Positions 11,627 through 32,598 of a DNA stretch of 64,000 nucleotides are shown one piece after another; position 1 is the first letter of the stretch; every line of letters begins with the position of its first letter. Both the position numbers and the translations under genes were made by a program. The DNA is from an uncultured Bacilli bacterium. GTDB lineage: Bacteria > Bacillota_I > Bacilli_A > RF39 > UBA660. Under the pieces are notes generated by a model. That model was not told the DNA's origin. It worked only from the letters and a program-made list of their open reading frames with translations, and made no database searches. Location: the NCBI GenBank assembly GCA_910579535.1, contig CAJTUR010000002.1, positions 124 through 64,123 on the forward strand. Reading direction: 5' to 3'.

Positions 11627-12154
11627 TTATATAAATTTAAAACGATTTAATGGCCAAAAGCGAATGGCAATTTTTCCAATAATATCTTTTTTTGAAATTA
11701 ACCCTATTTCTCTACTGTCTAAAGAATCAACGCGATTATCTCCTAAAACTAAATACATTCCTTCGGGGATTTTATCGTATCCTAAATCTTTTAAATAAAA
11801 ATCATCGTATTCTAATTCTTTACTAATGTAGGATTCTTCAAATTTTTCATTATTTATAAAAAGTGTGCTGTCTTTAATATACACATTTTCTCCTGGAAGA
11901 CCTATTACTCTTTTTATTAAATACTTTGTATTTGCATATTTTAATGAAATAATATCTCCCCTTTTTACATCTGTAAAACGATAATTAAATTTACTTAATA
12001 TAAACAATTCTTCATCTTTTAAAGTAGGATGCATCGAATTTCCTACGACTTTTGTTACTGAAAAAACATATTGTATGATAAATAAGATTACCACGACAAA
12101 AATAACAATTTTTAAAGTGTCTTTTAAAAACTCTTTTATTTCTAGCCAATCCAT
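11627..12154 (-). CDS. Type I signal peptidase (S26, Ser/Lys P-type)
   Basis: GNSMHPTL (catalytic Ser), KRVIGLPGE (catalytic Lys) and GDNRVDSLDSR motifs. Confidence 0.85.
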   Translation of the reverse strand: MDWLEIKEFLKDTLKIVIFVVVILFIIQYVFSVTKVVGNSMHPTLKDEELFILSKFNYRFTDVKRGDIISLKYANTKYLIKRVIGLPGENVYIKDSTLFINNEKFEESYISKELEYDDFYLKDLGYDKIPEGMYLVLGDNRVDSLDSREIGLISKKDIIGKIAIRFWPLNRFKFI

Positions 12155-12176: not shown

Positions 12177-12821
12177 CTAATTTAAATTTACATTTGCTTC
12201 TTTGGTTGATTGCTCAGCAATCACTTTTATTTTTAATTTAACCATTGGTTGATCGTTATAGTTTTCAGATTCATGATCAGAAATAGCACTTTCTCCTAAA
12301 GAAGTGTCTGTTCTATCCATGTCATCATCTTCATAAAAGTTCCATTTCCAACTTATGGTATGTTGATTGACTTTTAAAGGTTTATTTGCGGGATAAACGT
12401 CTTCTTCTCTCAATAAATTTTCTAAGAAAAATTTCAAAGTTTTGATGTCTAAGTTGTTATAGATTCCATCTAAACTGTAAGTCATTCTTCCTACGGTATC
12501 TAATGCTTCTAATACTTCAATTCTTAAAGTGTAATTGGTTTCGGGAATACCTGTAATGGTAAAGGTGTATTCTCCCTCTGTTCCAGGCGCAACAATTGCG
12601 TCTAAGTTCCCAGATTGTACCATTTTAGCTCCTTGTTCATTAAAATAAGAATCACGAAATAAGTCAATTTCTCTTGTTATGCCTATGTCCCATTTCGCGA
12701 CTCTTGCTTCATCACTGATATCAACTGATGAAACGTATTTAGCCATGGTTCCACTTACACCATATATACTCATTAATGTTAGAAACATTAAGCTTATTAA
12801 AAAGATAGATTTCCTTTTCAT
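12177..12821 (-). CDS. Secreted protein resembling TasA/BsaA-type matrix proteins
   Basis: Signal peptide followed by GTMAKYVSSVDISDEARVAKWDI. This resembles N-termini I associate with SipW-dependent matrix proteins. The gene is adjacent to a signal peptidase gene. Confidence 0.4.
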   Translation of the reverse strand: MKRKSIFLISLMFLTLMSIYGVSGTMAKYVSSVDISDEARVAKWDIGITREIDLFRDSYFNEQGAKMVQSGNLDAIVAPGTEGEYTFTITGIPETNYTLRIEVLEALDTVGRMTYSLDGIYNNLDIKTLKFFLENLLREEDVYPANKPLKVNQHTISWKWNFYEDDDMDRTDTSLGESAISDHESENYNDQPMVKLKIKVIAEQSTKEANVNLN

Positions 12822-12908: not shown

Positions 12909-14150
12909 TTAATTGATTTCTAAAATTTCGGTGTAATCGTATTTTTCTGGCACTTCTATTTGGGCGATATTACCCTGTTCATCCTTAATTATTTTTACAA
13001 ATAGTAACTTTGTTTCTATTAAGTGCGCTATTTTTTGGTAAGGTTTAATTACTTGCTCTTTATATTTTACGACGTCTTCCTTAATTAAATGAATGCAATT
13101 TTCTTTTTTCTCTTCACTGGTATACCCACAAAGAATGTAATACTTAAATGTGGTTTTATCTAAACCACTCAAATCGCCTGTTTTGATTTTGTAACCTTCT
13201 TCTAATCTGTTTATTGTTTCATTTAGAGCCCTTTTATTTTCAAAAAATAAGCGCATATCATGCAAGTGTTTTAATACCCCATTGTTTTCAATAGAAATGA
13301 CGTTATTGTCGGCTTTAATTTCAACAAATATTATTTTTTTGTTTTCTCCTACATAGGCATTATCAATTCGGCCACTAAATTTCGTATCATTCCAAAGGGT
13401 TGTTTCTTGAAATTTTTTATTATCATAAACGAAAACTTGCTGTCCTTTTGAACCGCGATAAGGGTAGATGACTACCTCAACTTCTAATGGCAAGGCATTT
13501 TGTTGAATCACCGCACTACAATCTTTTTTCATCATGTATTGTTGAAACATTTTTTCGTCTTTATTCCCTACAAATTCTAAATTGTATTTTTTTATTAATT
13601 CTTTCATTTGCATAATGATTTCATTTAATGTAACACTTTCTAATTGTTCATATTTTAATAAAAATTTAATATCAAAACTAGGCTTTTTTAAAGGCGACTT
13701 ATCCACTGTAACTTTTAAGAGTTCTTGTTGTATTTCGATGACACTCTCAATGGTATTGATGTCTTTAAATTCAATTTTAAAACTTTCTAATTCTTGTAAA
13801 GATTGGGATAATTCCTCTTTTTTTACAATATTTTCTAAGTTTTCTAGTTTCTTTTTAAAGTTGCTTAAGTTGGCATTGGTAAATTCAATGGTTGCGGTTT
13901 CACAGATGATTTCAAAATAAGGATTATATTGATTGAGTTTTTTAATCGCTTTGATATATTTTTGATAATTTTTTTCTTTAAACTCTTTTCCACTTAATTT
14001 TAAAGTTTCAGGCAAGGTGACTATGTTGTTTTTTAAATCAATGTCAAGAAGTCTTTGCCCTAAATAATATACTTTTTGATTGTCTTCGCGATACCTAATA
14101 ATCAGTTCTTCATCTTTTTTTACAATATTTATTAATTCTTTTAATTCCAT
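12909..14150 (-). CDS. Hypothetical protein with a PD-(D/E)xK-like nuclease motif (last gene of the cluster)
   Basis: 413 aa. GRIDNAYVGENKKIIFVEIKAD gives a D...E-x-K arrangement in a beta-rich context. A 3-nt gap separates it from the upstream gene. Confidence 0.4.
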   Translation of the reverse strand: MELKELINIVKKDEELIIRYREDNQKVYYLGQRLLDIDLKNNIVTLPETLKLSGKEFKEKNYQKYIKAIKKLNQYNPYFEIICETATIEFTNANLSNFKKKLENLENIVKKEELSQSLQELESFKIEFKDINTIESVIEIQQELLKVTVDKSPLKKPSFDIKFLLKYEQLESVTLNEIIMQMKELIKKYNLEFVGNKDEKMFQQYMMKKDCSAVIQQNALPLEVEVVIYPYRGSKGQQVFVYDNKKFQETTLWNDTKFSGRIDNAYVGENKKIIFVEIKADNNVISIENNGVLKHLHDMRLFFENKRALNETINRLEEGYKIKTGDLSGLDKTTFKYYILCGYTSEEKKENCIHLIKEDVVKYKEQVIKPYQKIAHLIETKLLFVKIIKDEQGNIAQIEVPEKYDYTEILEIN

Positions 14151-14153
14151 TTC

Positions 14154-15371
14154 TTATACCTCTATTTCTTCTTCGTCTTTGATTAAATAAACATTCTCTA
14201 AGATTTGTTGTAGTTCTTTGGCATTTGTCGTGTGTATGGGAATGACTTCTTTGGCTTTAAGTTTATTTAATAAAGCGATGGTTTCAATACTAGCATGACC
14301 TGATGTATGTAAGTTTATTTTATCATAAATTTCATAATTTTTTATTTTTTCTAAGAACTCTTTCATTTCTTCTTTTTCTTGGTACCCTTCCCACATGGAG
14401 TATAGAAGAACCGCATTCGTAATTTTCTTTTTGGCGTAGAGTTTTTCTATGTCTTCTAACATGGAAGTTTTTACAAGTAGTGTATATTTTTTGTTTTCAT
14501 AGGCTTCCTTTTTGCTGTATTTTTTAAAGGGTTCGATGTACATTTTTTTAAATTCTTTCTGTTTCTTTTTATATTTTGTCGGAATCCAAACGTAAACATT
14601 AGAAAAATTTTGAGGATTGGGAATTTTGTTGTTTTGTAGATGAGTAGCGATATTCGCGGTGAATAAGTCTTCGATAAAGTTTTTGTTCGTTTTTCGACTT
14701 GCTTTATAAATGGTTGTGATACGGTCGATATTGGTAGACGCCTGTAAAATAAACACTTGGTCATATTTTTTAAATATTTCAGTCGCTTCTAGGGTTAGTT
14801 CTTCTTCGGTTTTACTTTTTTCATTCTTTCTTCCTAAGGTTGTTCCTTCTGTTATGATTAGGTCAACAGTTCCTATTTCTTTGATTGCTTTTAAAAAAAG
14901 AGTGCCTTTTCTTCCATGATTTCGGAAGTCCCCCGTGTGCAAGATTCGTTTGTTTTCAGCTTCGATTAAAAACATAGCTGCATTATAGGAAGAGTGATCG
15001 ACTAAAAATGGAGTGATCGTGATGTCTTTAATGGTTATGGGTTTATGAAAGTTAAAGTGTAAGGTTTGTTTTTTGGGGTATTTTTTAGAGGTGAATTCAT
15101 TTAATAGATGATAGATTTTTTCTGAAATTTCTTCAACATAAATGGGAATATCTTCTAAGATATTGTGGATAAGTCCAATGTGATCACCATGGCTGTGGGT
15201 AATGAAGACGGCATCATAAGCGGGAGTTCCTTTGGTTAATCCTTCAATTTCAAAGTCCTTTTCTTCGTCAAGGTCACTTCCAAAATCGATGATAATTTTG
15301 GTGTTTTCCGTTTTGATTTCAGTGATACAGCCTCCTATTTGGTCGGTTCCTTTCCAAATTTTCACTTTCAT
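14154..15371 (-). CDS. beta-CASP metallo-beta-lactamase-fold nuclease (RNase J/CPSF-like)
   Basis: HSHGDHIG (HxHxDH), HTGDFRNHG, LIITEGT and LHTSGHAS motifs. Its start overlaps the upstream stop (ATGA at 15368-15371). Confidence 0.7.
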   Translation of the reverse strand: MKVKIWKGTDQIGGCITEIKTENTKIIIDFGSDLDEEKDFEIEGLTKGTPAYDAVFITHSHGDHIGLIHNILEDIPIYVEEISEKIYHLLNEFTSKKYPKKQTLHFNFHKPITIKDITITPFLVDHSSYNAAMFLIEAENKRILHTGDFRNHGRKGTLFLKAIKEIGTVDLIITEGTTLGRKNEKSKTEEELTLEATEIFKKYDQVFILQASTNIDRITTIYKASRKTNKNFIEDLFTANIATHLQNNKIPNPQNFSNVYVWIPTKYKKKQKEFKKMYIEPFKKYSKKEAYENKKYTLLVKTSMLEDIEKLYAKKKITNAVLLYSMWEGYQEKEEMKEFLEKIKNYEIYDKINLHTSGHASIETIALLNKLKAKEVIPIHTTNAKELQQILENVYLIKDEEEIEV

Positions 15372-17440
15372 AAAACATCTCCTATTTTACTTTCTAATAG
15401 TGTTTTCAATTTTAGTTGTTCTGTTAATTTTGTTTCAGTTCTTAATGCTTGTTCTATTTCTTCCCTAGTTTTATGAGGATTTATTTCGTTTTGTTTAAAG
15501 TAAGTAGAATAAAAAATTTCAGGGTAATCTATTTTTAGTTCGGCAAGTCTTAAAAACATTACGCTATAAGATAAGAGATGCCCTTTCGGGAAAAGGTACT
15601 TTATTTTGCCAATGGAGTCGATTAACCATTCAGGCATCTTCTTTTCTTGCATTAATTTTTTATATTCTTCCCAATTCTCCTTTTTTAATCTTCCAAAACT
15701 GATGTCTTCCATTATTTTTAAGGCATCCTTTCTTTCAAATTGATAGTTTAATAAGGTTGCTAATAAGTCTTCTCTTGAAGAAATGGTGTCTTTTAACTCA
15801 CAAATTTTCTTTTCAAGCAATTCTTGAGCGTTTTCATACCAAGTGTCTGTACCATGAAAAAGCCCATAGAGTTTTATTAAGTCTTCTTGAGAGTAAAGTT
15901 TTAAAGAGGGATTCTTTTTTTCTATAAAGTCTAATAAAAATTCATGAAAGCCTAGTATTCCAAATGGATAAGTAATTTCTTCTTTAGTTATTTTTAATAC
16001 TTTGGGACTATTAAATAAAGAAATGGTACGATTGTCGATGACTAATTCGTGAATGTCTTCTTGAATTTGGTTTTGAATTTCTTCTAATAAGGTTAGTAAC
16101 GAGTGTTCTAGGATGCCAAAACTGGTGATTTTTAAGTTTTCTGTTGGAATTTGAATGATTTTTTTATTTCCTATTATTTTAAAGGGAAGAAAAGATTGGT
16201 CATTTTCTTTTGGGAAGATGTAGTTTCGGCCCGCATGGATTCCTTCGGTCATTTTTACTCCAACGATTTTTAAGGCTAAGGCTTCTTTTTCTTCATTTTT
16301 TAATGTGAGGTTAAATTTTAGGCAATAGTCTTCAACTTTTTTTAAGGCTTCTTGTGGAGAATAAACTTTTTCAGTTCTTAAATAATAAATGTTGTAGTTT
16401 TCTTCTAAGGTGTTTAGGATTTCTTCTCTTTCATAAGCAAAGTTTATATTGATATCTGGCTTTTTATCAAAGTGACTTCCATAAAATATTTCAGGGGCTA
16501 AGTTTTTTTCTATGGGATTAAATTCGGTGATGTTTAATAAGTAGGCAATAAATGAGGAAGCGACTGCTCCTCTTGAAGAGGATAACTCACTTTTTGCACC
16601 TTGCATAATTTCTGCCCATATGAGATAAATGCTTGCGTTATGCTGGGCGAAAATACTTTTTAGTTCGAGCTTTATTCTTTCTAGGACTTCCAAAGGAATA
16701 TTTTTACCATATTTTTCTTGAACTTTTTTTTCTATTAAGGTTTTTAATTTTTCCTCTGCTTTCTCTATCTGTGGTTCTTTAGGTTCTTCAAGAGTTATTT
16801 TTTCTATCTGATTTATTAATGTCTTTTGGTTTTCAATAAAAATTTCATGTTTGATTGGTTCATCAAGATAAGAAAATTCTTCCCAAAGTTCTTCTTTTGT
16901 TTTTAAGTGAAAGTCTTTTAAATGTTCCATTTTTTGGTTCATTAGAATGGCCCAGGCTAATTTGTCTTCTTTTTTTAGGTAACGGACTTCATTTAGGATT
17001 AAAACTTTTTTGTTTTGTTTTTTCGCGGAGTCGAGGATTTTTAAAACTTGTTCTTTCTTCGTTGTGCTAGGAATTCCAATATAATCATAATAAAAATCCA
17101 GTGCGTTTGGTACTTCTTGGATTAAGATAGTGACGACGTTTGGGCATCCTTTTAAATTTTCGAGGGTTATTTCCTTTAATGAAAGTAGTTTAAATAATTC
17201 TTTTATCCCCTGGTTGTTTTTGGCAACGACAATATAGGAAAGTGATTCTTTAGTGGTTATTTCCATGCCATACATGAAGTTTTTGTTTTGTTCTTTAGTT
17301 AATAAATTTACTTGATAAAAATCGGAGATATCTTCTTTATTGGCTAAAATAAAGTTTTTTTCTGTTTCCATTAACTCTTTTATCTCTATTAAACTCTCTT
17401 TATTTGTTTTGGTGTGGACCCAATGAAGGATTTCATTCAT
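15368..17440 (-). CDS. Truncated PolC/DnaE-family DNA polymerase III alpha-like protein, predicted catalytically inactive
   Basis: Colinear with the PolC polymerase core. SSRGAVASSFIAYLLNITEFNPIE matches GSRGSVGSSFVA..TEVNP, and PDININF matches PDIDLNF. GVKMTEGIHAGRNYIFP matches GVKRTTGQHPGG, and FGILEH matches LDILGH. LFHGTDTWYENAQELL matches LSHGTDVWLGNAQELI, and IKYLFPKGHLLSY matches IKYMFPKAHAAAY. At 690 aa it is too short to contain the PolC N-terminal, OB and 3'-5' exonuclease regions. Confidence 0.75.
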   Translation of the reverse strand: MNEILHWVHTKTNKESLIEIKELMETEKNFILANKEDISDFYQVNLLTKEQNKNFMYGMEITTKESLSYIVVAKNNQGIKELFKLLSLKEITLENLKGCPNVVTILIQEVPNALDFYYDYIGIPSTTKKEQVLKILDSAKKQNKKVLILNEVRYLKKEDKLAWAILMNQKMEHLKDFHLKTKEELWEEFSYLDEPIKHEIFIENQKTLINQIEKITLEEPKEPQIEKAEEKLKTLIEKKVQEKYGKNIPLEVLERIKLELKSIFAQHNASIYLIWAEIMQGAKSELSSSRGAVASSFIAYLLNITEFNPIEKNLAPEIFYGSHFDKKPDININFAYEREEILNTLEENYNIYYLRTEKVYSPQEALKKVEDYCLKFNLTLKNEEKEALALKIVGVKMTEGIHAGRNYIFPKENDQSFLPFKIIGNKKIIQIPTENLKITSFGILEHSLLTLLEEIQNQIQEDIHELVIDNRTISLFNSPKVLKITKEEITYPFGILGFHEFLLDFIEKKNPSLKLYSQEDLIKLYGLFHGTDTWYENAQELLEKKICELKDTISSREDLLATLLNYQFERKDALKIMEDISFGRLKKENWEEYKKLMQEKKMPEWLIDSIGKIKYLFPKGHLLSYSVMFLRLAELKIDYPEIFYSTYFKQNEINPHKTREEIEQALRTETKLTEQLKLKTLLESKIGDVL

Positions 17441-17954
17441 AATATTTTTTTACCTCGCTTTCGTATAAAATTAAATCAATATTGATGTCGTGATTTTTTA
17501 CAAAGTCCCTAATCATGTTTTTTAACATGGGTCCTACTTCTTCATGCGTAAAGCCATATTCTCCTGTTCCAATACTTGGGAGTAAGATGTTTTTGTAGGA
17601 TTTTACACCCAATTCATCCAATAGGTTTTGATAAGTTATTTTTAGAATTTCTAAAGGATTTTTATAGTCCCAAACACGAGGGCCTTGAACAAAAAGAATG
17701 TCCATATTTAAGTTAAATCCAGGAGTGATTCGTATTTCTCCGACTTTCATTTCATTGGCGTTACTGTCATACGTGATATGATATTTTTCGCTTGTGTAGG
17801 CTTCTAGTACTTGGACGCCTGCTTTTTTAAATATGGCACCACTTACCCCCATCCCCATACGCATAGCGGGGTTGGTTGGGTTTACAATACAATCATGATT
17901 TTTTAAGATTTCATCAGTGGTGATGTCACCGATTAAGATGTTCATTTTGCCCAT
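17433..17954 (-). CDS. Macro-domain protein (ADP-ribose binding/hydrolysing fold)
   Basis: LIGDITTDE, DCIVNPTN, GMGVSGAIFKKAG and LLPSIGTGEYGF motifs. There is an 8-nt overlap with the downstream gene. Confidence 0.8.
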   Translation of the reverse strand: MGKMNILIGDITTDEILKNHDCIVNPTNPAMRMGMGVSGAIFKKAGVQVLEAYTSEKYHITYDSNANEMKVGEIRITPGFNLNMDILFVQGPRVWDYKNPLEILKITYQNLLDELGVKSYKNILLPSIGTGEYGFTHEEVGPMLKNMIRDFVKNHDINIDLILYESEVKKYYE

Positions 17955-18557
17955 TTAGTCTATCTCCTCAATCGAAAAATTTTCTTTGTTATAGGTTATT
18001 TTTATTTCGTTTTCTATTTTTCCTATTTGATAATTTTTAGGAATTTGATAATTCTCTATATCTTTTTCATTCATAAATAAAATAACTTCACTTTGATTTT
18101 CTTTCGCATAGTTTTCGATTTGATTAAAAATGGTTTCTATGTCTTCTGGGGTGCTACTAATAAAATCATCAAAGTCATCGATTAGGATACAATCGTATTT
18201 TGAGTTATGTTCAAATATAAATTCTAAATAAGTTTCGTCCGAAAATTTGTTTTTGCTCATGATTAAGTCGGATGAACGAATTTTTTCGATGGCATTTACA
18301 AATTTGGTGGGATTGATTTTTTCTTTAGTAGTGTGGCTAACGCCTAACGTTGGGTCTAAATAGGTTTCGATGATTTTATAGGATTCTCCTGATAATAAGG
18401 CAATGAGTTTACTTAAGTAAAAGTTTTTGGGAACATAAAATATTGGAAGAAAGACGGATTTGTTTTGATTTAGGGCATATTCGTTTAGAAGGTTGATAAA
18501 AAAAAGTATTCTTTCTTTGTTATTCATACTCGTGATAATTGAAATTTTTGGGTTCAT
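17955..18557 (-). CDS. Degenerate DnaB-C-terminal-domain (RecA-fold) protein lacking Walker A
   Basis: ISIITSMNNKERILFFINLLNEYA aligns with DnaB LIIIAARPGMGKTAFALNIA, and the GKT is lost. YDCILIDDFDDFI aligns with IDYLQL. AKENQSEVILFMNE aligns with AKEL..PVIALSQLSR. Confidence 0.55.
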   Translation of the reverse strand: MNPKISIITSMNNKERILFFINLLNEYALNQNKSVFLPIFYVPKNFYLSKLIALLSGESYKIIETYLDPTLGVSHTTKEKINPTKFVNAIEKIRSSDLIMSKNKFSDETYLEFIFEHNSKYDCILIDDFDDFISSTPEDIETIFNQIENYAKENQSEVILFMNEKDIENYQIPKNYQIGKIENEIKITYNKENFSIEEID

Positions 18558-19864
18558 GAGTTGCTCCTTTCAAAGGCAAAGATTCTTTCAGGATTTTGGT
18601 TGGATTCTTCAAAGATTAAGTCTACTTTTTCATCGTCTCTTTTTAAAGTGGTGATGATGTTTTGGGTAAATTTACTAAAGTTATGATAAAAGGGTAAATC
18701 TTCTTTAGGGTGACGTATTTGATAGGCATTCAAGATGATGATTTTGGTGTTTTCATATTTGGCATATTGGTAAAGTTGTTCTACTATTTCTTCTCCCTCT
18801 TTCGAACAACGTTTTTGGAAAGTGATAAAGTCATTTATGATTAAGTAATCATAATGGTTTTCTAAGTTTAAAATCTCAGTTTCTAAGTCTATTTTCTTAA
18901 AAAGTTCAGTGTCTTCAAAGTTTTCATAAGTACAATTTAGCGAATTATTTTTTAGTTTTCCATCAAAGTCACAAATTCTTATTTGGGTGTTTTCTTTTAA
19001 AACTTGTTCTTTTAGGATGTTTAGAAGCGTTAGGGCCTCTTGGTTTTCTTCACTATATAATACACTGATTTTATTATTGGTGAAGCGGGTTTCAAATGTT
19101 TTTTCGATTCCATTTTCTTCAAATGTTAAAATTTCATTTGTCTTTGAATTGAGGCTTACTTTTTCGCCCGTGTCAAAATGATAAATCCCCTCTTTTGCAT
19201 TATAGTCGATTACTTTTACGTTATGGTGCTTATAAAAGTTTAGGCTTCCATAGCCAGAAAGTCCTCCTTCTAAAAATAAAAATTGGGTATTGGTTTTACG
19301 GGCGTAGTTCTGAATGGTTTCTAAAACTTTTACTCTTGCTTCTTCATAGGGGATTTGGAGCTCTTGTTCTAATTTTTTTTGTTCATATCTTAAACAACTA
19401 TTGATGTCTTTTAGTATAACTAAATCATATTTTGTATTTTTATAATGTTCATCAAAAATAAAGTAAAGGTTGCCATAGTCAGCATAGATGGATTCGTTTA
19501 TTTGAAAGTGACTATTTTTGATGGTTTCTAAAGAGGCGAAAAAGGCTTCTTTGTTTGGTAAATCGTTTACGACTTGCCTTTCTTCTAGTCGTTGTTGATA
19601 ACTAAATGGGGCTAAATAAGCGAGTGTTTTTTCTAGGTCAATGTTGGAAATTCGCGAAACGAGGTTGGCATGAAACCAGCTCGTGTCTTCAGGAATGTCA
19701 TTCACTGAGGTTATGAGTAAGACTTTTTTGTTTTCTTTTATGGCTGTTTCATAAATGATGTTGGTTAGTAGTGGTGTTAAATCTATGGTAGACCCCCACT
19801 CTCTAGAAATCCATAAATTAATTTCTTGGGTTAATAATTTTTTTGCTATTTTTATTTGATTCAT
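18554..19864 (-). CDS. Protein with two degenerate DnaB-C-terminal/RecA-like modules
   Basis: First module: ISREWGSTIDLTPLLTNIIYETAIKENKKVLLITS, YDLVILKDINSCL and ARKTNTQFLFLE. Second module: YDYLIINDFITF and AKYENTKIIILNAYQIR. The preferred start is ATG 19864 (MNQIKIAKK), preceded by AAAGGAAAGAG. A 4-nt overlap joins it to the next gene. Confidence 0.5.
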   Translation of the reverse strand: MNQIKIAKKLLTQEINLWISREWGSTIDLTPLLTNIIYETAIKENKKVLLITSVNDIPEDTSWFHANLVSRISNIDLEKTLAYLAPFSYQQRLEERQVVNDLPNKEAFFASLETIKNSHFQINESIYADYGNLYFIFDEHYKNTKYDLVILKDINSCLRYEQKKLEQELQIPYEEARVKVLETIQNYARKTNTQFLFLEGGLSGYGSLNFYKHHNVKVIDYNAKEGIYHFDTGEKVSLNSKTNEILTFEENGIEKTFETRFTNNKISVLYSEENQEALTLLNILKEQVLKENTQIRICDFDGKLKNNSLNCTYENFEDTELFKKIDLETEILNLENHYDYLIINDFITFQKRCSKEGEEIVEQLYQYAKYENTKIIILNAYQIRHPKEDLPFYHNFSKFTQNIITTLKRDDEKVDLIFEESNQNPERIFAFERSNS

Positions 19865-19889
19865 ATACTCTCTTTCCTTTTCTACTTCC

Positions 19890-19898
19890 ATTATAACA
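19890..19898 (-). promoter_or_regulatory. Extended -10 promoter element (TGTTATAAT) in front of the 18554-19864 gene
   Basis: The minus strand reads ...ctgTGtTATAATgg, ending ~25 nt upstream of ATG 19864. The -35 region is weak. Confidence 0.4.
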
Positions 19899-19902
19899 CA
19901 GT

Positions 19903-19925
19903 AAAAAAGCCGTTTAGTAAACGAC
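19903..19925 (-). terminator. Intrinsic terminator-like hairpin between the second and third genes of the cluster
   Basis: The minus strand reads GUCGUUU-ACU-AAACGGC followed by UUUUUU. Confidence 0.5.
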
Positions 19926-19967
19926 ATTCTTTTTTATATTTATCTGTTTTAAACACTATTTTTTCGG

Positions 19968-21020
19968 CTATTTTGTAATTGCATTTATTTGGAACCATTC
20001 TTTCTTTTTAAAATCGTACCCGATATTTTGGTAAAGATTATTTAAGTCTTCTAAATCTCTTTCAATTTGGCGTTCCGATTGCAAAAAAACTGTTTTTAGT
20101 TCTTTAGTGGTGAAGGTTTCTTTTCCTTTTAAATATTTTTTTAGTTCTTCTAGTTTTTCTCTTCTTTGGGCACTTATTTTACGTGATTTATTTGTTAATA
20201 AGTTGTTAAGAAATAAACGGTACAGGGTTTCGTCTTCAAAGTAGTTTTCGTTGACAAAATAAAAAGGACTGTATTTTAAATGGTATTTGTTTTGTTTTTT
20301 TACGTCTTGAGTGATGATGTAAACATAGGTAAAGTTTTTAAAGAATGTTCGGTATTTTTTATCCAGTTCTATACTGTTTTTTGGTAATAAATCTTCTTTT
20401 ATGATTGCTAGAAAGCCCTGTTTTCTTTTTAGTTCGTCTAGGATGTTGGCTTTTTTTATGTAGGGAAATTGACAAGCCAATTCATTTTCAATTCTGTCTT
20501 TAAATTCTTGTTGTCTTTTATCGGTGAAGTTTATGTTATCTAATTTCCCACAAAGATAAACGATTCGTTTTTCTTTTTTTAAATCGATGGCATGTGGTTT
20601 TACGTTTATTGTTTTTATTGGGGATTTTACGGATTTAAGGGAGGTTTTTATTTTGTTTTGGGTATTTAAAATAGTATAAAAGGAAACTTGTTCGAGATAG
20701 GCTTTTATTTTTAATAAGTTTTCGTTTAAGTTTAAAAAGAGGATGAGATCACTTGAAATGATTTCTTCACTAAACATGGGGGTATCTGGTTTTATTTGGA
20801 TGCTCTTTTTTACTTTTTCTTTTTCTTCGTCAGTGATATATCTAAGATCGATGTAGCCAAATTGGAGGGTGAGTTTTTGGTCATAAAGACTTGCAAAATC
20901 GTCGATTTTTAGTTCGTTCATTAATTCTTTTTTGCCACTAATTCTAGTTCCTAAAATCAAAATGCGTTTTTCAGGATTTTCTTTAATGATTTTTTTGATT
21001 TTCCTAATTTCTTCTTTCAT
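19968..21020 (-). CDS. Hypothetical protein: deviant P-loop-like N-terminus, central Rossmann-like segment, C-terminal winged-HTH
   Basis: ILILGTRISGKKEL fits GxxxxGK-like. RIVYLCGKLDN is reminiscent of nucleoside deoxyribosyltransferase/SLOG-type strands. The C-terminus TTKELKTVFLQSERQIERDLEDL is DeoR/HTH_11-like. A 4-nt overlap joins it to the NUDIX gene. Confidence 0.4.
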   Translation of the reverse strand: MKEEIRKIKKIIKENPEKRILILGTRISGKKELMNELKIDDFASLYDQKLTLQFGYIDLRYITDEEKEKVKKSIQIKPDTPMFSEEIISSDLILFLNLNENLLKIKAYLEQVSFYTILNTQNKIKTSLKSVKSPIKTINVKPHAIDLKKEKRIVYLCGKLDNINFTDKRQQEFKDRIENELACQFPYIKKANILDELKRKQGFLAIIKEDLLPKNSIELDKKYRTFFKNFTYVYIITQDVKKQNKYHLKYSPFYFVNENYFEDETLYRLFLNNLLTNKSRKISAQRREKLEELKKYLKGKETFTTKELKTVFLQSERQIERDLEDLNNLYQNIGYDFKKKEWFQINAITK

Positions 21021-21466
21021 TCTACTCCCTTTATTTTATTTAAGGCCTGCTGCGTCATTTCATCTCCAACACTTCCCCAATTCAAGTAATTATTTAACTC
21101 TTTTAAGGGAATCAAAATTCTTTGGTAGGTTTCATGTTCGGCGGGATCAGGTCTTTCTTCACCAATGGATTTAATAGTGGCTAACATTCTTACTTGGGCA
21201 TAGGAATCCTTTGTATCACCATTGACTTCTTGGAAGCCTAAATAGGAAATATCGGAAATTATTATATTTACTTCTTCTAATACTTCACGTTTTAGGGTTT
21301 CTTCTAGCGTTTCATTTTTTTCAGGATGTCCGCCTGGAATACGATAATTCCCATTTTTTTCTTGATAAATCAGCACTTGCTTCTTCTCATTTAAGATAAT
21401 GCCAGAGACTTGCGTAATTCTCATATTTTTGGGGACTTCTTCGGTATGGTAGTTATATTCAATCAT
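21017..21466 (-). CDS. NUDIX hydrolase (first gene of the cluster)
   Basis: Nudix box GGHPEKNETLEETLKREVLEEVN. Confidence 0.8.
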   Translation of the reverse strand: MIEYNYHTEEVPKNMRITQVSGIILNEKKQVLIYQEKNGNYRIPGGHPEKNETLEETLKREVLEEVNIIISDISYLGFQEVNGDTKDSYAQVRMLATIKSIGEERPDPAEHETYQRILIPLKELNNYLNWGSVGDEMTQQALNKIKGVE

Positions 21467-21581
21467 TTTTTTCCTCCACTTTGATTTATTAATCGCTTTT
21501 CTTGAACTCCTATTTTTCTCTAATTTTTCAGGTTGGTATAACCATTTTTTAACTTCTACAATGACCTAAATATTTATGTTC

Positions 21582-22076
21582 TTATTTTTTTCTATCTGGG
21601 ACATGCCAAACATCAATTTCTTCTTTTTGGGGAATTTCAAATATAGAGGAAACCTTTTTTAATAATCCTTCATCCACATAAAAACTGGAACCTCCATTAC
21701 CTGCTAGAACTTTACTATTTCTTTCTTCTATATTTTCATACCAAGTTGTATCATCAATATCAATATAATGCATTTCTAATAAAATTTTATGTTCTTTGGC
21801 ATACTCTTTAATTTCATTTCTATTTTCCTTTACCCAAAATCCCCAATCTAAAATTACAGTACATCCTGCATTAACAATTTCTACTGCTTTTTTTCTTAAA
21901 TATAAATTCACTCTTCTAGCAAATTCATCATAATCTTCCCCTTGTTTATTATTTGTTAAATCATAAGTTACTTCATCTGTAGATAAAATCACAGCATGTT
22001 CTTTTTCTTTTAATTGATTCGCATAATAAGTTTTGCCACAACCAATTTTTCCACATATACAAATTAATTTTGCCAT
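21582..22076 (-). CDS. Small P-loop kinase/ATPase (AAA_33-like)
   Basis: Walker A CGKIGCGKTY and a Walker B-like VILDWGF. 164 aa. Confidence 0.6.
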   Translation of the reverse strand: MAKLICICGKIGCGKTYYANQLKEKEHAVILSTDEVTYDLTNNKQGEDYDEFARRVNLYLRKKAVEIVNAGCTVILDWGFWVKENRNEIKEYAKEHKILLEMHYIDIDDTTWYENIEERNSKVLAGNGGSSFYVDEGLLKKVSSIFEIPQKEEIDVWHVPDRKK

Positions 22077-22090
22077 AAACCTAATCTCCT

Positions 22091-22675
22091 TTATTTCCTT
22101 AATCCATCACTTTGTACCCAAGAATAAAATAAACTTTTATCTGGAACATTGTATTCGTAATCTAATTTTGAATTAAAACTATCTATTAAATCAATTGCCT
22201 CTTTCAATACTTCCTCTTTACTTTTGCCTACTATATCTAAGATAACTTCATTAGGCAATAGATCTCTATCCATAATTTTTTTTGTAGATATTTCTAATAA
22301 TTCCAAGTCAATTAATCCATCGGAACCACGAGCAATCATTTGTCTTTTATTTTGTTCATAATCACTTGAAATTAATTTTAAAGTAACAAAATTGGTACCT
22401 TTAAATATTTGTGGTATTTCCCTTGATCTAATGTCATTGAAATCAAGGGCTATAATATATTTTAGACCTTTATCATAAAAATATTTTAATAATAAAATAA
22501 AAGATTCCCACATTATTTCTTCTTCGAATTTTCCTTCATCAACATTATCTGGTATGCCAAACTCTGGAATCATGTTTTGTTCAAAATAAACTCCATTATA
22601 ATGTTTATACAATTCTTTTGCCAAAGTAGTCTTTCCAATACCACTAGGACCAATTATAAATATATAATCTTTCAT
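22091..22675 (-). CDS. Small P-loop kinase/ATPase
   Basis: Walker A IIGPSGIGKTTLAKEL. 194 aa. Confidence 0.6.
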   Translation of the reverse strand: MKDYIFIIGPSGIGKTTLAKELYKHYNGVYFEQNMIPEFGIPDNVDEGKFEEEIMWESFILLLKYFYDKGLKYIIALDFNDIRSREIPQIFKGTNFVTLKLISSDYEQNKRQMIARGSDGLIDLELLEISTKKIMDRDLLPNEVILDIVGKSKEEVLKEAIDLIDSFNSKLDYEYNVPDKSLFYSWVQSDGLRK

Positions 22676-22689
22676 TTCCGTTCCTCCAT

Positions 22690-23349
22690 TTATCTTTTAA
22701 TTATGAATTCTAATAGAAATTCCTTTAAATGCTCTAATATATTTTTTTCTAAATCTGTTTCTAAATAATCTGTATTTTCTTTAATATCAAGAAATTCTAA
22801 AACAAATGGATCTTTTACTAAATCTTTACTTGATTCTAAAATTTGACCTTTCTCTGCAAGTTCTAAGATTTTTTCTTTATTAGTAGATAAGGCTAATCTT
22901 TCATATAATAGAGAACCGATTTGCCTCCCAAGTTCCCTAACACTCCATTTAGTATTTATACATTCATTGAATTAAAAATTCCTTTTAGTTTCTTCCTCTA
23001 TCTTTATTAATTCCAAATAATGTGACCAACTTAATTGCGACGACACTGTTGTCGCAATTGGAAAATAAATATAGAATTTTCTCATTCTCTCTAAATTTCT
23101 TTTAGAAAATCCTTTGCCAAATTCATTCGTTAATTTTTGTGATAGTTTCTCCAAAACAGCATCACCATAACTTGCTCTTTCATCTCCCTGTTGGATTTCC
23201 ATAATTGCCTCGCCAATATTCCAATAAAGCTTAGGCATTTCCGTATTTACAGCACTATATACTTTATTTCTACTATTAATAACTAATTCTTTTATATTAT
23301 CAAATATAGTATTAATTTCATTATCATTTTTAATTAATTCATTGTCCAT
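22690..23349 (-). pseudogene. DUF1016 (YhcG-like PDDEXK nuclease) pseudogene with an in-frame stop and a 3' truncation
   Basis: The N-terminal 125 aa parallel the intact paralog at 55435-56451. My translation continues in the same frame through TAA at 22972-22974 (NF*FNECINTKWSVRELGRQIGSLLYERLALS...EFLLE). It then ends before the nuclease core. Confidence 0.75.
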
Positions 23350-23778
23350 TAATTGCCTCCAATTTTCAATTCAAATCATAAAGACTTCTTATGTCTAAAT
23401 TATACTCTAAGTAAAACTCTTCCATACTCCATATTCATTTTAACTTCTTTTAATTGTAATAAGGGAATTCTTTTAGTTAAACTTATGAAACTTGCTAGCT
23501 ACCGATTATGTCAATATAAACTTAACTGATAAACGATTAACTATCGTAAATAATGTTTAAGATTCGATTGTTTTTTAAATAAATCTATGCTATTTATAGT
23601 ATTTGCTAGATTTCTATTTTTTGATTGTTTATTTTAAAGATACAGTTTTTTTCTAAAATTTTTGCCATTTTTTTAGGAATTTCAAAGGGTTTTGCCCATT
23701 CTTTTTGAAGTATAGTTAAGTCAATGTTTTCTAAAGTTTCATAATTTATAATTAAATTTTCTGCGGTTATTTCAATAC

Positions 23779-30745: not shown

Positions 30746-31738
30746 TTATTCTCGATTCTTTTTTAGAATTTCTAAATATTGATTTTGGTATTTTTTTAAA
30801 ACTAAGTCTTCTTTTCCTCGAACCATAGCTATAAAGTTCAATCTTCCTTCTATTACTTTTTTCAATTCCTTAATCAGTTTATTTTTATGTATATTTTGAC
30901 AATCATATTTTTCATCTTTTTTAAAATAATTTAAAGCGGTCACATAAAGCCCCTCTTTTTCACAACGATTCAGTAATGCTCTTAATTTTTTGATGTAAAT
31001 TTTTTTTACGTTTACTTTTTCATTAACAATTAAACCCGTCACTTCTTTTCTTTCCCGTTGCCAACTATAATTGGTTTTGGTTTCATTGATGGTAAAGCCA
31101 CTTCTTTCGATTCGTTTTCGTAATTCTTGACCAAGTATAATTTCGTTGTCTTGATTTCTTTTGACAATTTTTTCAGAAAAAGGGGTTCGACTCGATAAAG
31201 TGATATCATCCGCGTATCTTGTATAGTGAAATTGATACTGTTCACCTAAACGAAGTATTTTCTTATCTAATGAATAACACACAATATTTGAAAGACTGGG
31301 TGATGCTGGTGATCCTTGAGGGAGTGCATTGTGAAAACATGAAAGGTTCGCCAGAATGGTTGCGACTTCTTTTGGTAAATTAAATGGCTCAGTCATAAAT
31401 ATGCCTCGAACACGTCCAAAATGAATGGAGGGAAAGAAATTTTTTAAGTCAATATTTAAAATGTATCCCGCTTTACTATGAATTATAGCATTATCCACAA
31501 TACTTTTTCCTTTGATAAAGCCATATTGACATTCTAAAAAAGTATATTTTTTATCAATATACTCTTTTATTTTTTCTTGTACTTTTTTTAGATTCCAATC
31601 AGGTGATGCAATAGTACGATACCCGCCACTTCGTTTTGGCACTTTAAAGGTATGGTATTTACTTTTGGTTAATGCTTCATTAAGTAATTCCTCATCAATA
31701 TCTAAAATATAACTAACATAATTTTTAGGATTTTTCAT
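30746..31738 (-). CDS. Retron-type reverse transcriptase
   Basis: RT motifs YRTIASP, NIDLKNFFPSI, LPQGSPASPSLSN and YTRYADDITLSS. The retron-characteristic VDNAIIH (NAxxH) and RKEVTGLIVNEK (VTG) are also present. 330 aa. Confidence 0.85.
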   Translation of the reverse strand: MKNPKNYVSYILDIDEELLNEALTKSKYHTFKVPKRSGGYRTIASPDWNLKKVQEKIKEYIDKKYTFLECQYGFIKGKSIVDNAIIHSKAGYILNIDLKNFFPSIHFGRVRGIFMTEPFNLPKEVATILANLSCFHNALPQGSPASPSLSNIVCYSLDKKILRLGEQYQFHYTRYADDITLSSRTPFSEKIVKRNQDNEIILGQELRKRIERSGFTINETKTNYSWQRERKEVTGLIVNEKVNVKKIYIKKLRALLNRCEKEGLYVTALNYFKKDEKYDCQNIHKNKLIKELKKVIEGRLNFIAMVRGKEDLVLKKYQNQYLEILKKNRE

Positions 31739-31863
31739 ACTAATTCCTCGAATTCTAACATTATTGGTAAACCCGTAAGAGGTTTTACATATCGTAAGAT
31801 ATGTATTGTTTATACATTTTAATTGTCACTGCGAAACGCTCGTGATAGGCAATTCTTATTTCA
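31739..31863 (-). ncRNA. Candidate retron msr/msd non-coding RNA region (boundaries unknown)
   Basis: 125-nt spacer directly 5' of the RT start, packed with hairpins on the minus strand. These are UCAC-GAGCGUUUCGCA-GUGA, AUGUAU-AAACA-AUACAU, AUAUC-UUAC-GAUAU and AAACC-UCUUACG-GGUUU. I could not identify a convincing a1/a2 pair. Confidence 0.35.
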
Positions 31864-32598
31864 TTAGTAATTTATAAAGTTCTCTTTTTGAGGATTATAA
31901 TCTAAGTACACGGTATCCATACCACCATAACGGTTTTTAGCAATGATGATTTCTAAAATGTTATTTTTATTTTCACTCGAATAGTAATATTTACGATATA
32001 AGAATAAGACAATGTCTGAGTTACTTTCTAAATTACCGCTATTTTTTAAATCCATTAGTAAGGGCCTACTGTTTTCTCTATGTTCTACATTTCTAGAAAT
32101 TTGAGATAATAGAAAGACGATTAATTTTTTCTGATTAGCAAGAGCTCTTATTTTATCTAATACTTCATTATAGGTATCGATAGACGAAGAGCTTTTCTGA
32201 CTACTTTTTAATAATTGTATGTAATCGATGATAACGAATTTTATTCCATTTTCGTTAATCAATTGTTCTAGTTCTTCTACCGTAAAGCAATCGTCTGAAA
32301 GATAGAGATTATAATTCTTTTTAGTGAGTTCAGACATTGTTTCTTTCATTAAGTTTTCATTTTTTTGAATTTCTGAAAATTTTTCTCCTTTTGAAAGGGT
32401 GGCTAATTTTAGAGCACTTTTTTCTTTACTCATTTCTAAATTTACATATAGTGTTGGAACATTATAATTGTCCATTAAACTTAATAGTATATTATTCATA
32501 AAATTACTTTTTCCCATACCAGGCCTTGCTCCAATAGTTATAATAGTACTTTCATTGATTCCATTTAATGCTTTATCTAATGGTTTTAAACCTAACAA
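31864..32598 (-). CDS. Stand-alone DnaB-C-terminal-domain (RecA-fold) ATPase, motifs intact
   Basis: Walker A GARPGMGKSNF, Walker B FVIIDYIQLL, LLSQISRNVE and AKNRYGG. It lacks the DnaB N-terminal domain. The start codon is uncertain: TTG at 32598, or an in-frame ATC at 32658 behind a strong SD. Confidence 0.75.
   Translation of the reverse strand: MLGLKPLDKALNGINESTIITIGARPGMGKSNFMNNILLSLMDNYNVPTLYVNLEMSKEKSALKLATLSKGEKFSEIQKNENLMKETMSELTKKNYNLYLSDDCFTVEELEQLINENGIKFVIIDYIQLLKSSQKSSSSIDTYNEVLDKIRALANQKKLIVFLLSQISRNVEHRENSRPLLMDLKNSGNLESNSDIVLFLYRKYYYSSENKNNILEIIIAKNRYGGMDTVYLDYNPQKENFINY

Follow-up and report, generated by a model that had tools for sequence, protein, structure and literature searches.

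In a 2026 census of bacterial DNA polymerases, the C family comprises DnaE1 to DnaE3 and PolC, all of which are active groups (PMC12926913). Inactive homologues are reported there for the Y family only, and truncated or divergent sequences were discarded (PMC12926913). The case known from the Y family is ImuB, which occurs with ImuA or ImuA'. Here a polymerase homologue without catalysis is combined with a RecA-fold protein without ATPase motifs and kept as an adaptor, which binds the beta clamp and works with the active polymerase DnaE2 (PMC12926913). In this work, we analysed a 64,000-nucleotide stretch of DNA from an uncultured Bacilli bacterium (contig CAJTUR010000002.1, positions 124 to 64,123; hereafter the window), in which the gene at 15368-17440 encodes a short PolC-like protein. 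This protein is a pseudo-polymerase of the C family within an uncharacterised operon, for which we infer a function below. The gene is as follows.

15368..17440, minus strand: short PolC-like pseudo-polymerase, 690 amino acids; PHP domain (about residues 1-225), palm, thumb and fingers; catalytic triad D329/N331/G442

The open reading frame spans 690 codons from an ATG start to a TGA stop. When the protein was searched with HMMER against the chains of the Protein Data Bank (PDB), residues 131-651 aligned with PolC from two species, 9qpc (E = 1.9e-61) and G. kaustophilus 3f2b (E = 9.1e-61), and the matches to DnaE were far weaker. A first-pass annotation, made from the letters of the window alone, had described the palm, thumb and fingers as colinear with PolC, which agrees with this alignment. 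The protein shares the PHP, palm, thumb and fingers with the known PolC structures (3F2B; 9QPC/9QRN), at 24-31% identity over the core and with the RGSxxSS and KYxFPKxH motifs. The NCBIfam PolC models NF001688 and TIGR01405 matched with E values of 2.6e-95 and 6.3e-86, but the scores (320.2 vs 873 bits and 289.1 vs 1043 bits) reached only about one third of the equivalog cut-offs. In Pfam, PF07733 gave 84.6 bits (cut-off 23.9), while PF17657 stayed slightly under its cut-off of 22 with 21.6 bits. The AlphaFold2 model built from a 42-sequence alignment reached a predicted local distance difference test score (pLDDT) of 91.7 and a predicted template modelling score of 0.89. It superposed on PolC structures with query-normalised template modelling (TM) scores of 0.79-0.87, compared with 0.65-0.75 for DnaE (Foldseek; E = 2e-42 to 3f2b). 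Hence, at the level of the fold, the protein has the PHP domain and the Pol-beta-like palm, thumb and fingers of the C-family superfamily.

The catalytic triad was read from three alignment methods. In both printed HMMER alignments, the PolC motif 'kvPDIDLNF' is paired with 'kkPDININF', and 'LKLDILGHDD' is paired with 'ITSFGILEHS'. The register was identical in MAFFT (14 and 42 sequences) and in hmmalign (153 sequences). Thus the triad is D329/N331/G442, where the PolC norm is D/D/D, and the three Asp residues of a PolC-type Pol III are not all present. The first-pass annotation had proposed that the second Asp became Asn (PDIDLNF to PDININF) and the third became Gly (LDILGH to FGILEH); both substitutions were recovered by HMMER, MAFFT and hmmalign, and neither Asp nor Glu occupies these two sites. 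Full-length PolCs carried D/D/D in 15/15 cases in the 42-sequence alignment and in 105/106 in the 153-sequence alignment, and because the latter holds within the same alignment, the triad loss is not alignment noise. Outside the catalytic carboxylates, the nucleotide- or DNA-contacting residues R290, G291, S295, S296, H446, R556, D558, K619, H621 and Y625 are kept, and in active enzymes these contact the triphosphate and the primer.

The PHP domain is also altered at its metal site. It had been suggested that only a residual PHP-like start remained, which proved wrong: residues 1 to about 225 form a whole PHP-type domain that is confidently modelled by AlphaFold2, DnaE models cover residues 15-351 in profile matches, and PHP phosphoesterases match as well (Foldseek). 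An active PHP domain carries nine metal-binding residues, HHDHEH[C/H]DH (PMC12926913), of which seven positions could be mapped here. Most of them are replaced in the window protein and in its 63% identical orthologue P0003 (given in this order): H1 to W/C, H2 to H/R, D3 to E, H4 to K/Q, D8 to E and H9 to R. E5 is thus the sole ligand unchanged in both proteins, H2 being kept in the window protein and replaced by R in P0003, and the ligand set of an active PHP phosphoesterase or exonuclease is missing. In agreement with the first-pass annotation, the alignments confirmed that the N-terminal domains, the OB fold and the 3'-5' exonuclease (the DnaQ-type insert) are absent, and the Zn-finger insert is absent too. 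The PolC region after the fingers (helix-hairpin-helix and clamp-binding tail) is also missing, with 40 residues (651-690) compared with a median of 145 in full PolCs. Because this C-terminal tail is absent, no clamp-binding motif is evident. The protein therefore has neither the exonuclease insert in the PHP domain, nor the N-terminal and OB regions, nor the helix-hairpin-helix and clamp region of a PolC. It further departs from PolC in its degenerate PHP metal site, its D/N/G triad and its position in a variable accessory operon. As far as sequence can tell, we have thus shown a PolC-type C-family polymerase core without the second and third catalytic Asp and without a functional PHP site.

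The substitutions are conserved in the close relatives. In a word-indexed protein search, the close family consisted of three clusters only, all from public-run assemblies (Logan), and the next matches were DnaE and PolC. P0001 and P0002 (96% and 89% identity) carry the same D/N/G triad as the window protein, and P0003 carries D/F/G. A genome scan found the family in two uncultured gut lineages, namely the 'Bacilli bacterium' metagenome-assembled genome (MAG) MGBC121705 (91%) and a 'Tenericutes' MAG (63%). More than 100 public contigs contain the locus. At least four alleles, the most distant of them 63% identical, carry an intact open reading frame, and the identity between the two deep alleles is uniform over PHP, palm, thumb and fingers (60-71%). 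The ratio of nonsynonymous to synonymous substitution rates (dN/dS) was 0.22 at a dS of 0.18 against locus L007 (91% identity) and 0.20 at a dS of 1.26 against locus L001 (63%). The gene is therefore under purifying selection and is not decaying. Two other ideas were rejected. A pseudogene was ruled out by the dN/dS of 0.20-0.22, and an alternative code with TGA as Trp was ruled out by TGA codons that end genes preceding Shine-Dalgarno (SD)-like sequences and overlapping starts.

Since word-indexed searches and a profile search with short PolC-like sequences did not recover the wider group of short PolC-like proteins, an exhaustive HMMER search was required, which returned 5915 matches. The top match outside the family was P0043, a protein of 762 amino acids (293 bits, identity about 30%) with the same shortened architecture, which is not a PolC; it differs from the window protein in its intact triad and in the genuine DnaB encoded next to it. 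In a neighbour-joining tree of the polymerase core of 153 representatives, which is distance-based and carries no support values, a short clade of 47 representatives lies apart from the full-length PolCs. These proteins have 450-1300 amino acids, most with a contiguous PHP domain and without N-terminal domains. The window protein shares with the clade the contiguous PHP domain and core (about 680-850 amino acids), the lack of an exonuclease and the position apart from full PolC, as well as the association with DnaB or DnaB_C, Macro, AAA and WYL or helix-turn-helix (HTH) proteins. Judging by the core alignment, the window gene is thus a member of a separate short PolC-like clade rather than a trimmed host PolC. 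The earlier term 'PolC paralog' is correct for the PolC-type core, but not in the sense of a recent paralogue of the host PolC. The clade is unnamed, and one member, MCL2153649.1, is labelled 'PHP domain-containing protein' by NCBI.

At least one triad residue is lost in 17/47 representatives of the short clade, compared with 1/106 full-length PolCs, and 13 of the 17 lie outside the window family. By the aligned residues, triad loss is therefore recurrent across the short PolC-like clade. The window case thus points to a clade of short PolC-like proteins that repeatedly lost the triad, and to a C-family core that is without catalysis yet under selection. No such non-catalytic C-family class has been described, and our literature search on inactive, shortened, truncated or mini PolC found no description.

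The contexts of the clade members that were looked up are mostly mobile or accessory. The locus of the nearest relative, whose triad is intact (L013), encodes DnaB, the short PolC, an AAA ATPase, Macro and an N6-methyltransferase, and locus L014 combines a WYL regulator, a short PolC with a K/S/D triad and a stand-alone DnaB_C protein. An ancestry in a mobile replication cassette is suggested by these two loci. In other loci, the short PolC stands with WYL and a Mob_Pre relaxase (L016), serine recombinases (L017), WYL (L019), an AAA ATPase (L021) or an endonuclease (L022). Megablast of 24 kb around the gene against phage and plasmid DNA gave no match, tblastn against phages gave only host-PolC-like contaminant contigs and distant DnaE, two IMG/VR scans gave no match, and the BFVD fold matches were all distant DnaE-like proteins (11-19% identity). 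Because none of these searches gave a close match, a recent phage origin is unsupported.

The PolC-like gene is the sixth of eight tightly packed genes. The other seven are listed below in the order of transcription.

21017..21466, minus strand: NUDIX hydrolase, 149 amino acids; Pfam NUDIX E = 1.2e-15; first gene of the tight block
19968..21020, minus strand: p350, unknown N-terminal region and C-terminal HTH, putative regulator or sensor; PADLOC profile on the HTH part only
18554..19927, minus strand: p457, RecA/DnaB-like N-terminal domain by Foldseek of the AlphaFold model, poorly modelled C-terminal half
17955..18557, minus strand: p200, single-domain paralogue of the N-terminal half of p457; hhalign 95.6%, E = 1.2e-8
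17433..17954, minus strand: MacroD-type macrodomain, 173 amino acids; Pfam Macro E = 2e-19
14154..15371, minus strand: metallo-beta-lactamase (MBL)/beta-CASP hydrolase, 405 amino acids, RNase J-like core; Pfam Lactamase_B_2 E = 7.6e-15
12909..14150, minus strand: p413, last gene of the variable block; E223/E225 ... GRID263N ... FVE277-I-K279

The gene order NUDIX, p350, p457, p200, MacroD, PolC-like, beta-CASP MBL, p413 is common to loci L001-L008. Starts and stops overlap or abut, an SD-like sequence precedes each gene, and the MacroD and PolC-like genes share 8 nucleotides at the stop of the former and the start of the latter. As predicted from this layout, which shows translational coupling to the MacroD gene and to the beta-CASP MBL gene, the PolC-like gene is co-transcribed with genes for ADP-ribose-processing and nuclease-type enzymes. 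A promoter and terminator scan of the operon performed no better than shuffled sequence. The first-pass annotation had considered a non-catalytic Pol III alpha scaffold conserved inside an operon. A probably non-catalytic core conserved in this setting is supported by the three alignments, the model, the 63% orthologue, the gene order and the dN/dS of about 0.2; the scaffold role is what the protein might then fulfil.

The Nudix box of the first gene product, GHPEKNETLEETLKREVLEEVNI, is essentially complete with the box glycine replaced by Asn, and the protein matches the PADLOC candidate family PDC-S07 (E = 1.4e-12). The best PDB matches of the macrodomain are MacroD-type proteins, or O-acetyl-ADP-ribose deacetylases (E = 3e-17), and its gene is the best conserved of the operon between alleles (84% amino acid identity, dN/dS 0.075). 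The MBL protein matches the RNase J family of NCBIfam with E = 3e-17, under the cut-off, and EF2904 and RNase J in PDB. With its HxHxDH motif intact ('THSHGDH'), it is a probable nuclease effector. The p413 motif is invariant in four alleles that are 61-93% identical, and its pattern is typical of PD-(D/E)xK nucleases, which makes p413 a candidate nuclease at the motif level; no database or PDB match was found for it. The PADLOC WYL-regulator profile covers only the HTH part of p350 (residues 289-339, E = 5e-5). Its motif 'SERQIERDL' is conserved, and its P-loop-like GTRISGKK is not conserved in L007. Sequence and profile searches of p457, p413 and p350 against PDB gave nothing credible.

Two products resemble RecA-fold proteins. 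In p457, the P-loop position reads W-G-S-T, invariant and without the lysine. Its modelled N-terminal domain (pLDDT about 55-86) matched only the RecA superfamily in Foldseek, with DnaB 4esv first (E = 3.7e-5), followed by DMC1/RAD51/RadA, SPP1 G40P, T7 gp4 and KaiC. The homologue search for p457 and p200 returned near-identical sequences only, and because an alignment of these is uninformative, the p457 model reaches only medium confidence. We assign p457 as a RecA/DnaB-like protein with moderate confidence from the model, since the profile comparison to DnaB_C was negative. By way of p457, we regard p200 as a putative RecA/DnaB-like domain that lacks the canonical Walker A motif; it gave no Pfam, PHROG, PADLOC or NCBIfam match. 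The DnaB_C profile and the Walker A GK[ST] of the DnaB family are lacking in both proteins. The start of p457 is likely M22 (19864), 21 codons downstream of M1, because the orthologues begin there and an SD-like sequence lies upstream, whereas M1 has none; with this start, about 100 bp lie between p350 and p457.

Compared with known conflict systems, the operon resembles DarTG and other macrodomain modules in having a macrodomain hydrolase in a conflict-type neighbourhood with weak DarG profile matches. However, its macrodomain is of the MacroD type and scores 24 bits against a DarG equivalog cut-off of 250, and none of Pfam, NCBIfam and PADLOC revealed a DarT-like ADP-ribosyltransferase in the operon, so that it is not a DarTG pair. 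The PADLOC matches of the operon are limited to NUDIX (candidate PDC-S07), the weak DarG and the weak WYL-HTH, and these do not make up a known defence system. The PolC-like gene, MBL, p457, p200 and p413 gave no PADLOC match.

The operon lies in a hypervariable island whose surroundings are listed here.

12177-12821 and 11627-12154, minus strand: secreted 214-residue protein and type I signal peptidase, just downstream of the operon; 98-100% identical
21582..22675, minus strand: two P-loop kinase-like genes (AAA_33-type, 164 amino acids; AAA_18-like, 194 amino acids), in the window and L007
24083..28088, minus strand: upstream co-directional block of an HTH_3 regulator, p236, thioredoxin-like p293, p289 and p207
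30746-32598, minus strand: retron-type reverse transcriptase (RT), 330 amino acids, directly downstream of a stand-alone DnaB_C protein of 244 amino acids; PADLOC E = 1e-113, Pfam E = 1e-50
50354-53654, minus strand: Gabija pair of GajA (OLD-type ATPase/TOPRIM, E = 6e-55) and GajB (UvrD-type helicase, E = 5e-70) by PADLOC
55435-56451, minus strand: YhcG PDDEXK nuclease, intact

Between the window and L001/L008, the operon genes are 49-84% identical with dS values of 1.3-2.1, whereas the flanking sec214, sipS and RT genes show a dS of 0.00-0.03. The synonymous divergence of the operon is thus 40 to >100 times that of its flanks. The downstream side has an abrupt recombination boundary near 12.85 kb, while dS in the upstream block climbs stepwise toward the operon (0.18, 0.36, 0.60, 0.78, 0.98). 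The L007 allele is a mosaic, with p457, p200 and Macro at 98-99.5%, the PolC-like gene at 91%, and NUDIX and p350 at 88%. At the site of the kinase pair, L001/L008 carry a gene for an HD-domain phosphohydrolase (window 21547-23600 vs L001 5314-5973), which by its position looks like a cassette swap at the operon head. Such deep allelic divergence with recombination matches the pattern of conflict loci. The neighbourhood is also rich in defence genes, as the window holds the retron-type RT, the Gabija pair, the YhcG nuclease, a NOV_C protein and a module with a Mob_Pre relaxase and an integrase. The RT lies about 9 kb upstream of the operon, and the PADLOC profiles RT-TIR_XII and RT-Protease_XI cover its RT part only. 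Because it is 99.7% identical in amino acids to the L001 counterpart (dS 0.02), it is outside the hypervariable block. Inside the island, a DUF1016_N fragment of 125 amino acids (22972-23349, minus strand) resembles the N-terminus of the YhcG protein 32 kb away and may have been left behind by a duplication or insertion.

We therefore favour, at a probability of about 0.5, the explanation that the PolC-like protein is a non-catalytic scaffold or DNA-binding subunit within an uncharacterised conflict system. The protein would no longer polymerise, and would instead bind primer-template DNA or act as a scaffold. Together with p457 and p200, which lack the Walker lysine, it may form a replisome-like recognition module descended from a mobile-element cassette of DnaB, short PolC, AAA and Macro. 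This module would position or license the hydrolases of the operon (the beta-CASP nuclease and the PD-(D/E)xK-like protein) on a nucleic-acid target, while MacroD would remove ADP-ribose that NUDIX then degrades. The target would be foreign or conflict-related DNA, making the operon a defence or inter-element conflict system, as argued by the deep divergence between near-identical flanks and by the retron-type RT and Gabija nearby. The closest functional analogy is ImuA'/ImuB, although ImuB belongs to the Y family and not to the C family, and neither a clamp motif nor an active polymerase as partner is seen in the window operon.

Several points weigh against this explanation. The PolC-like protein is presumed to be inactive, but D329 is still present, and E445 places a Glu at the near-invariant Gly site of LDILGH (FGILEH in the window protein). 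A Glu at this site occurs in 5/16 broken-triad representatives versus 1/135 intact-triad representatives, so E445 could, from its place in the alignment, be a compensating residue or a relocated metal ligand. Because it co-varies with the triad loss, residual metal binding keeps a small chance. The distribution of the family is limited to two closely related lineages of uncultured gut Bacilli/'Tenericutes'. The fold call of p457 relies on a model with a mean pLDDT of 51 and a TM score of about 0.3; against the DnaB_C profile, p457 and p200 gave an hhalign probability of <2%, and there was no Pfam match. No core operon gene matches a known defence family of PADLOC-DB v2. Apart from the polymerase and a weak Macro, no homologues of the operon were detectable in the other short-PolC loci; p350, p457, p200 and p413 have none there, and hence the 'system' may be lineage-specific. 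Finally, related mobile elements may have replaced the operon repeatedly, which could explain the deep divergence in place of selection for diversity.

A more specific form of the favoured explanation, which we hold tentatively and consider rather unlikely as a whole, is that a dead PolC and dead DnaB-like proteins from a mobile-element cassette constitute a 'pseudo-replisome' that acts as an immune sensor and triggers the nucleases. It might be a bait for those phage or plasmid proteins which take over or block the host replisome; alternatively, it might detect replication intermediates of foreign origin. Once engaged, it would free the beta-CASP and PD-(D/E)xK nucleases, and MacroD with NUDIX would reset an ADP-ribose mark.

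The operon might instead be a repair or damage-tolerance module, a possibility that deserves serious attention although the balance is clearly on the other side. In this case, the dead polymerase and the dead RecA/DnaB-like proteins would be mutasome adaptors of the ImuA'/ImuB type or, in a variant, Macro, NUDIX, the HD protein or kinases and the beta-CASP nuclease would reverse DNA or RNA ADP-ribosylation and process ends. MacroD, NUDIX, HD or P-loop kinases and the beta-CASP MBL do resemble repair toolkits. WYL regulators, a type that includes the DNA-damage regulators PafBC and DriD, accompany several short PolC-like genes (L014, L016 and L019). The synonymous divergence of 40 to >100 times the flanks and the mosaic alleles are nevertheless unexpected for housekeeping repair. 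The extremely narrow distribution, the lack of an active polymerase or ligase partner encoded nearby and the lack of an evident clamp-binding motif point in the same direction, even though ImuA/ImuB is a precedent in which both the polymerase and the RecA-like protein of a pair are inactive (PMC12926913). It is improbable, on the other hand, that the protein is still a nucleotidyltransferase that uses D329 with E445 or other ligands, as a specialised or low-efficiency polymerase or a terminal transferase. D329 is invariant, the Glu at the near-invariant Gly site is enriched among broken-triad proteins, and the triphosphate- and primer-contacting residues (RG..SS, H446, R556, D558, K619, H621 and Y625) are kept. 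However, the Phe of the orthologue at the second carboxylate site cannot bind metal, and D/D/D in 15/15 and 105/106 full-length PolCs indicates a strong catalytic constraint. Moreover, residue 445 is three residues past 442 on the same predicted beta-strand (441-445) and should therefore face the opposite way.

The remaining two explanations concern the origin of the gene. The gene might be a leftover without function from the replication module of an element that integrated long ago, which would agree with relatives on mobile elements, with the loss of both the polymerase and the PHP catalytic sites, and with adjacent RecA/DnaB-like proteins that lack the Walker lysine. This is very improbable and largely refuted by the selection analysis, given at least four intact alleles and a dN/dS of 0.20-0.22 with dS up to 1.26; translational coupling is also kept, the fold is confidently predicted, and many non-catalytic residues are invariant. 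That the gene encodes the replicative PolC of the organism with tolerated substitutions has nothing but the homology in its favour and practically no chance of being true. The protein has lost two of the catalytic Asp residues and has neither a proofreading exonuclease nor an OB fold nor a clamp-binding tail, and its gene lies in a hypervariable island. In related low-GC Bacilli, PolC is found in the canonical context pyrH-frr-...-polC-rimP-nusA (P0195, from a related bacterium in another sample), and PolC together with DnaE3 is present in every Bacilli/Mollicutes genome surveyed (PMC12926913).

If the operon does act in conflicts, the known means of bacterial immunity would come to include a recognition module derived from the replisome, and the exaptation of mobile-element replication proteins could be followed in a tractable example. 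Should the 'pseudo-replisome' sensor prove true, the short PolC-like clade would be a reservoir of C-family polymerases that were repeatedly inactivated and recruited non-catalytically. In either case, annotation may wrongly label genes of this kind 'DNA polymerase III PolC-type', which can confuse replication-gene inventories of uncultured gut Bacilli.

Other parts of the window contain further accessory genes. On the strand opposite to the operon, 58858-62652 (plus strand) encodes an AAA_25 (RepA/KaiC-like) ATPase, a Mob_Pre relaxase and a tyrosine integrase. This module resembles an integrative mobilisable element, and close to 58 kb the GC skew reverses its sign. At 32801-36878 and 45128-46291 (minus strand) lie genes for an M6-type metallopeptidase with dockerin and GLUG repeats, a cadherin-like protein and a NOV_C protein. 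A dockerin is unusual in a 'Tenericutes'-like gut lineage, and these genes are unrelated to the PolC-like protein.

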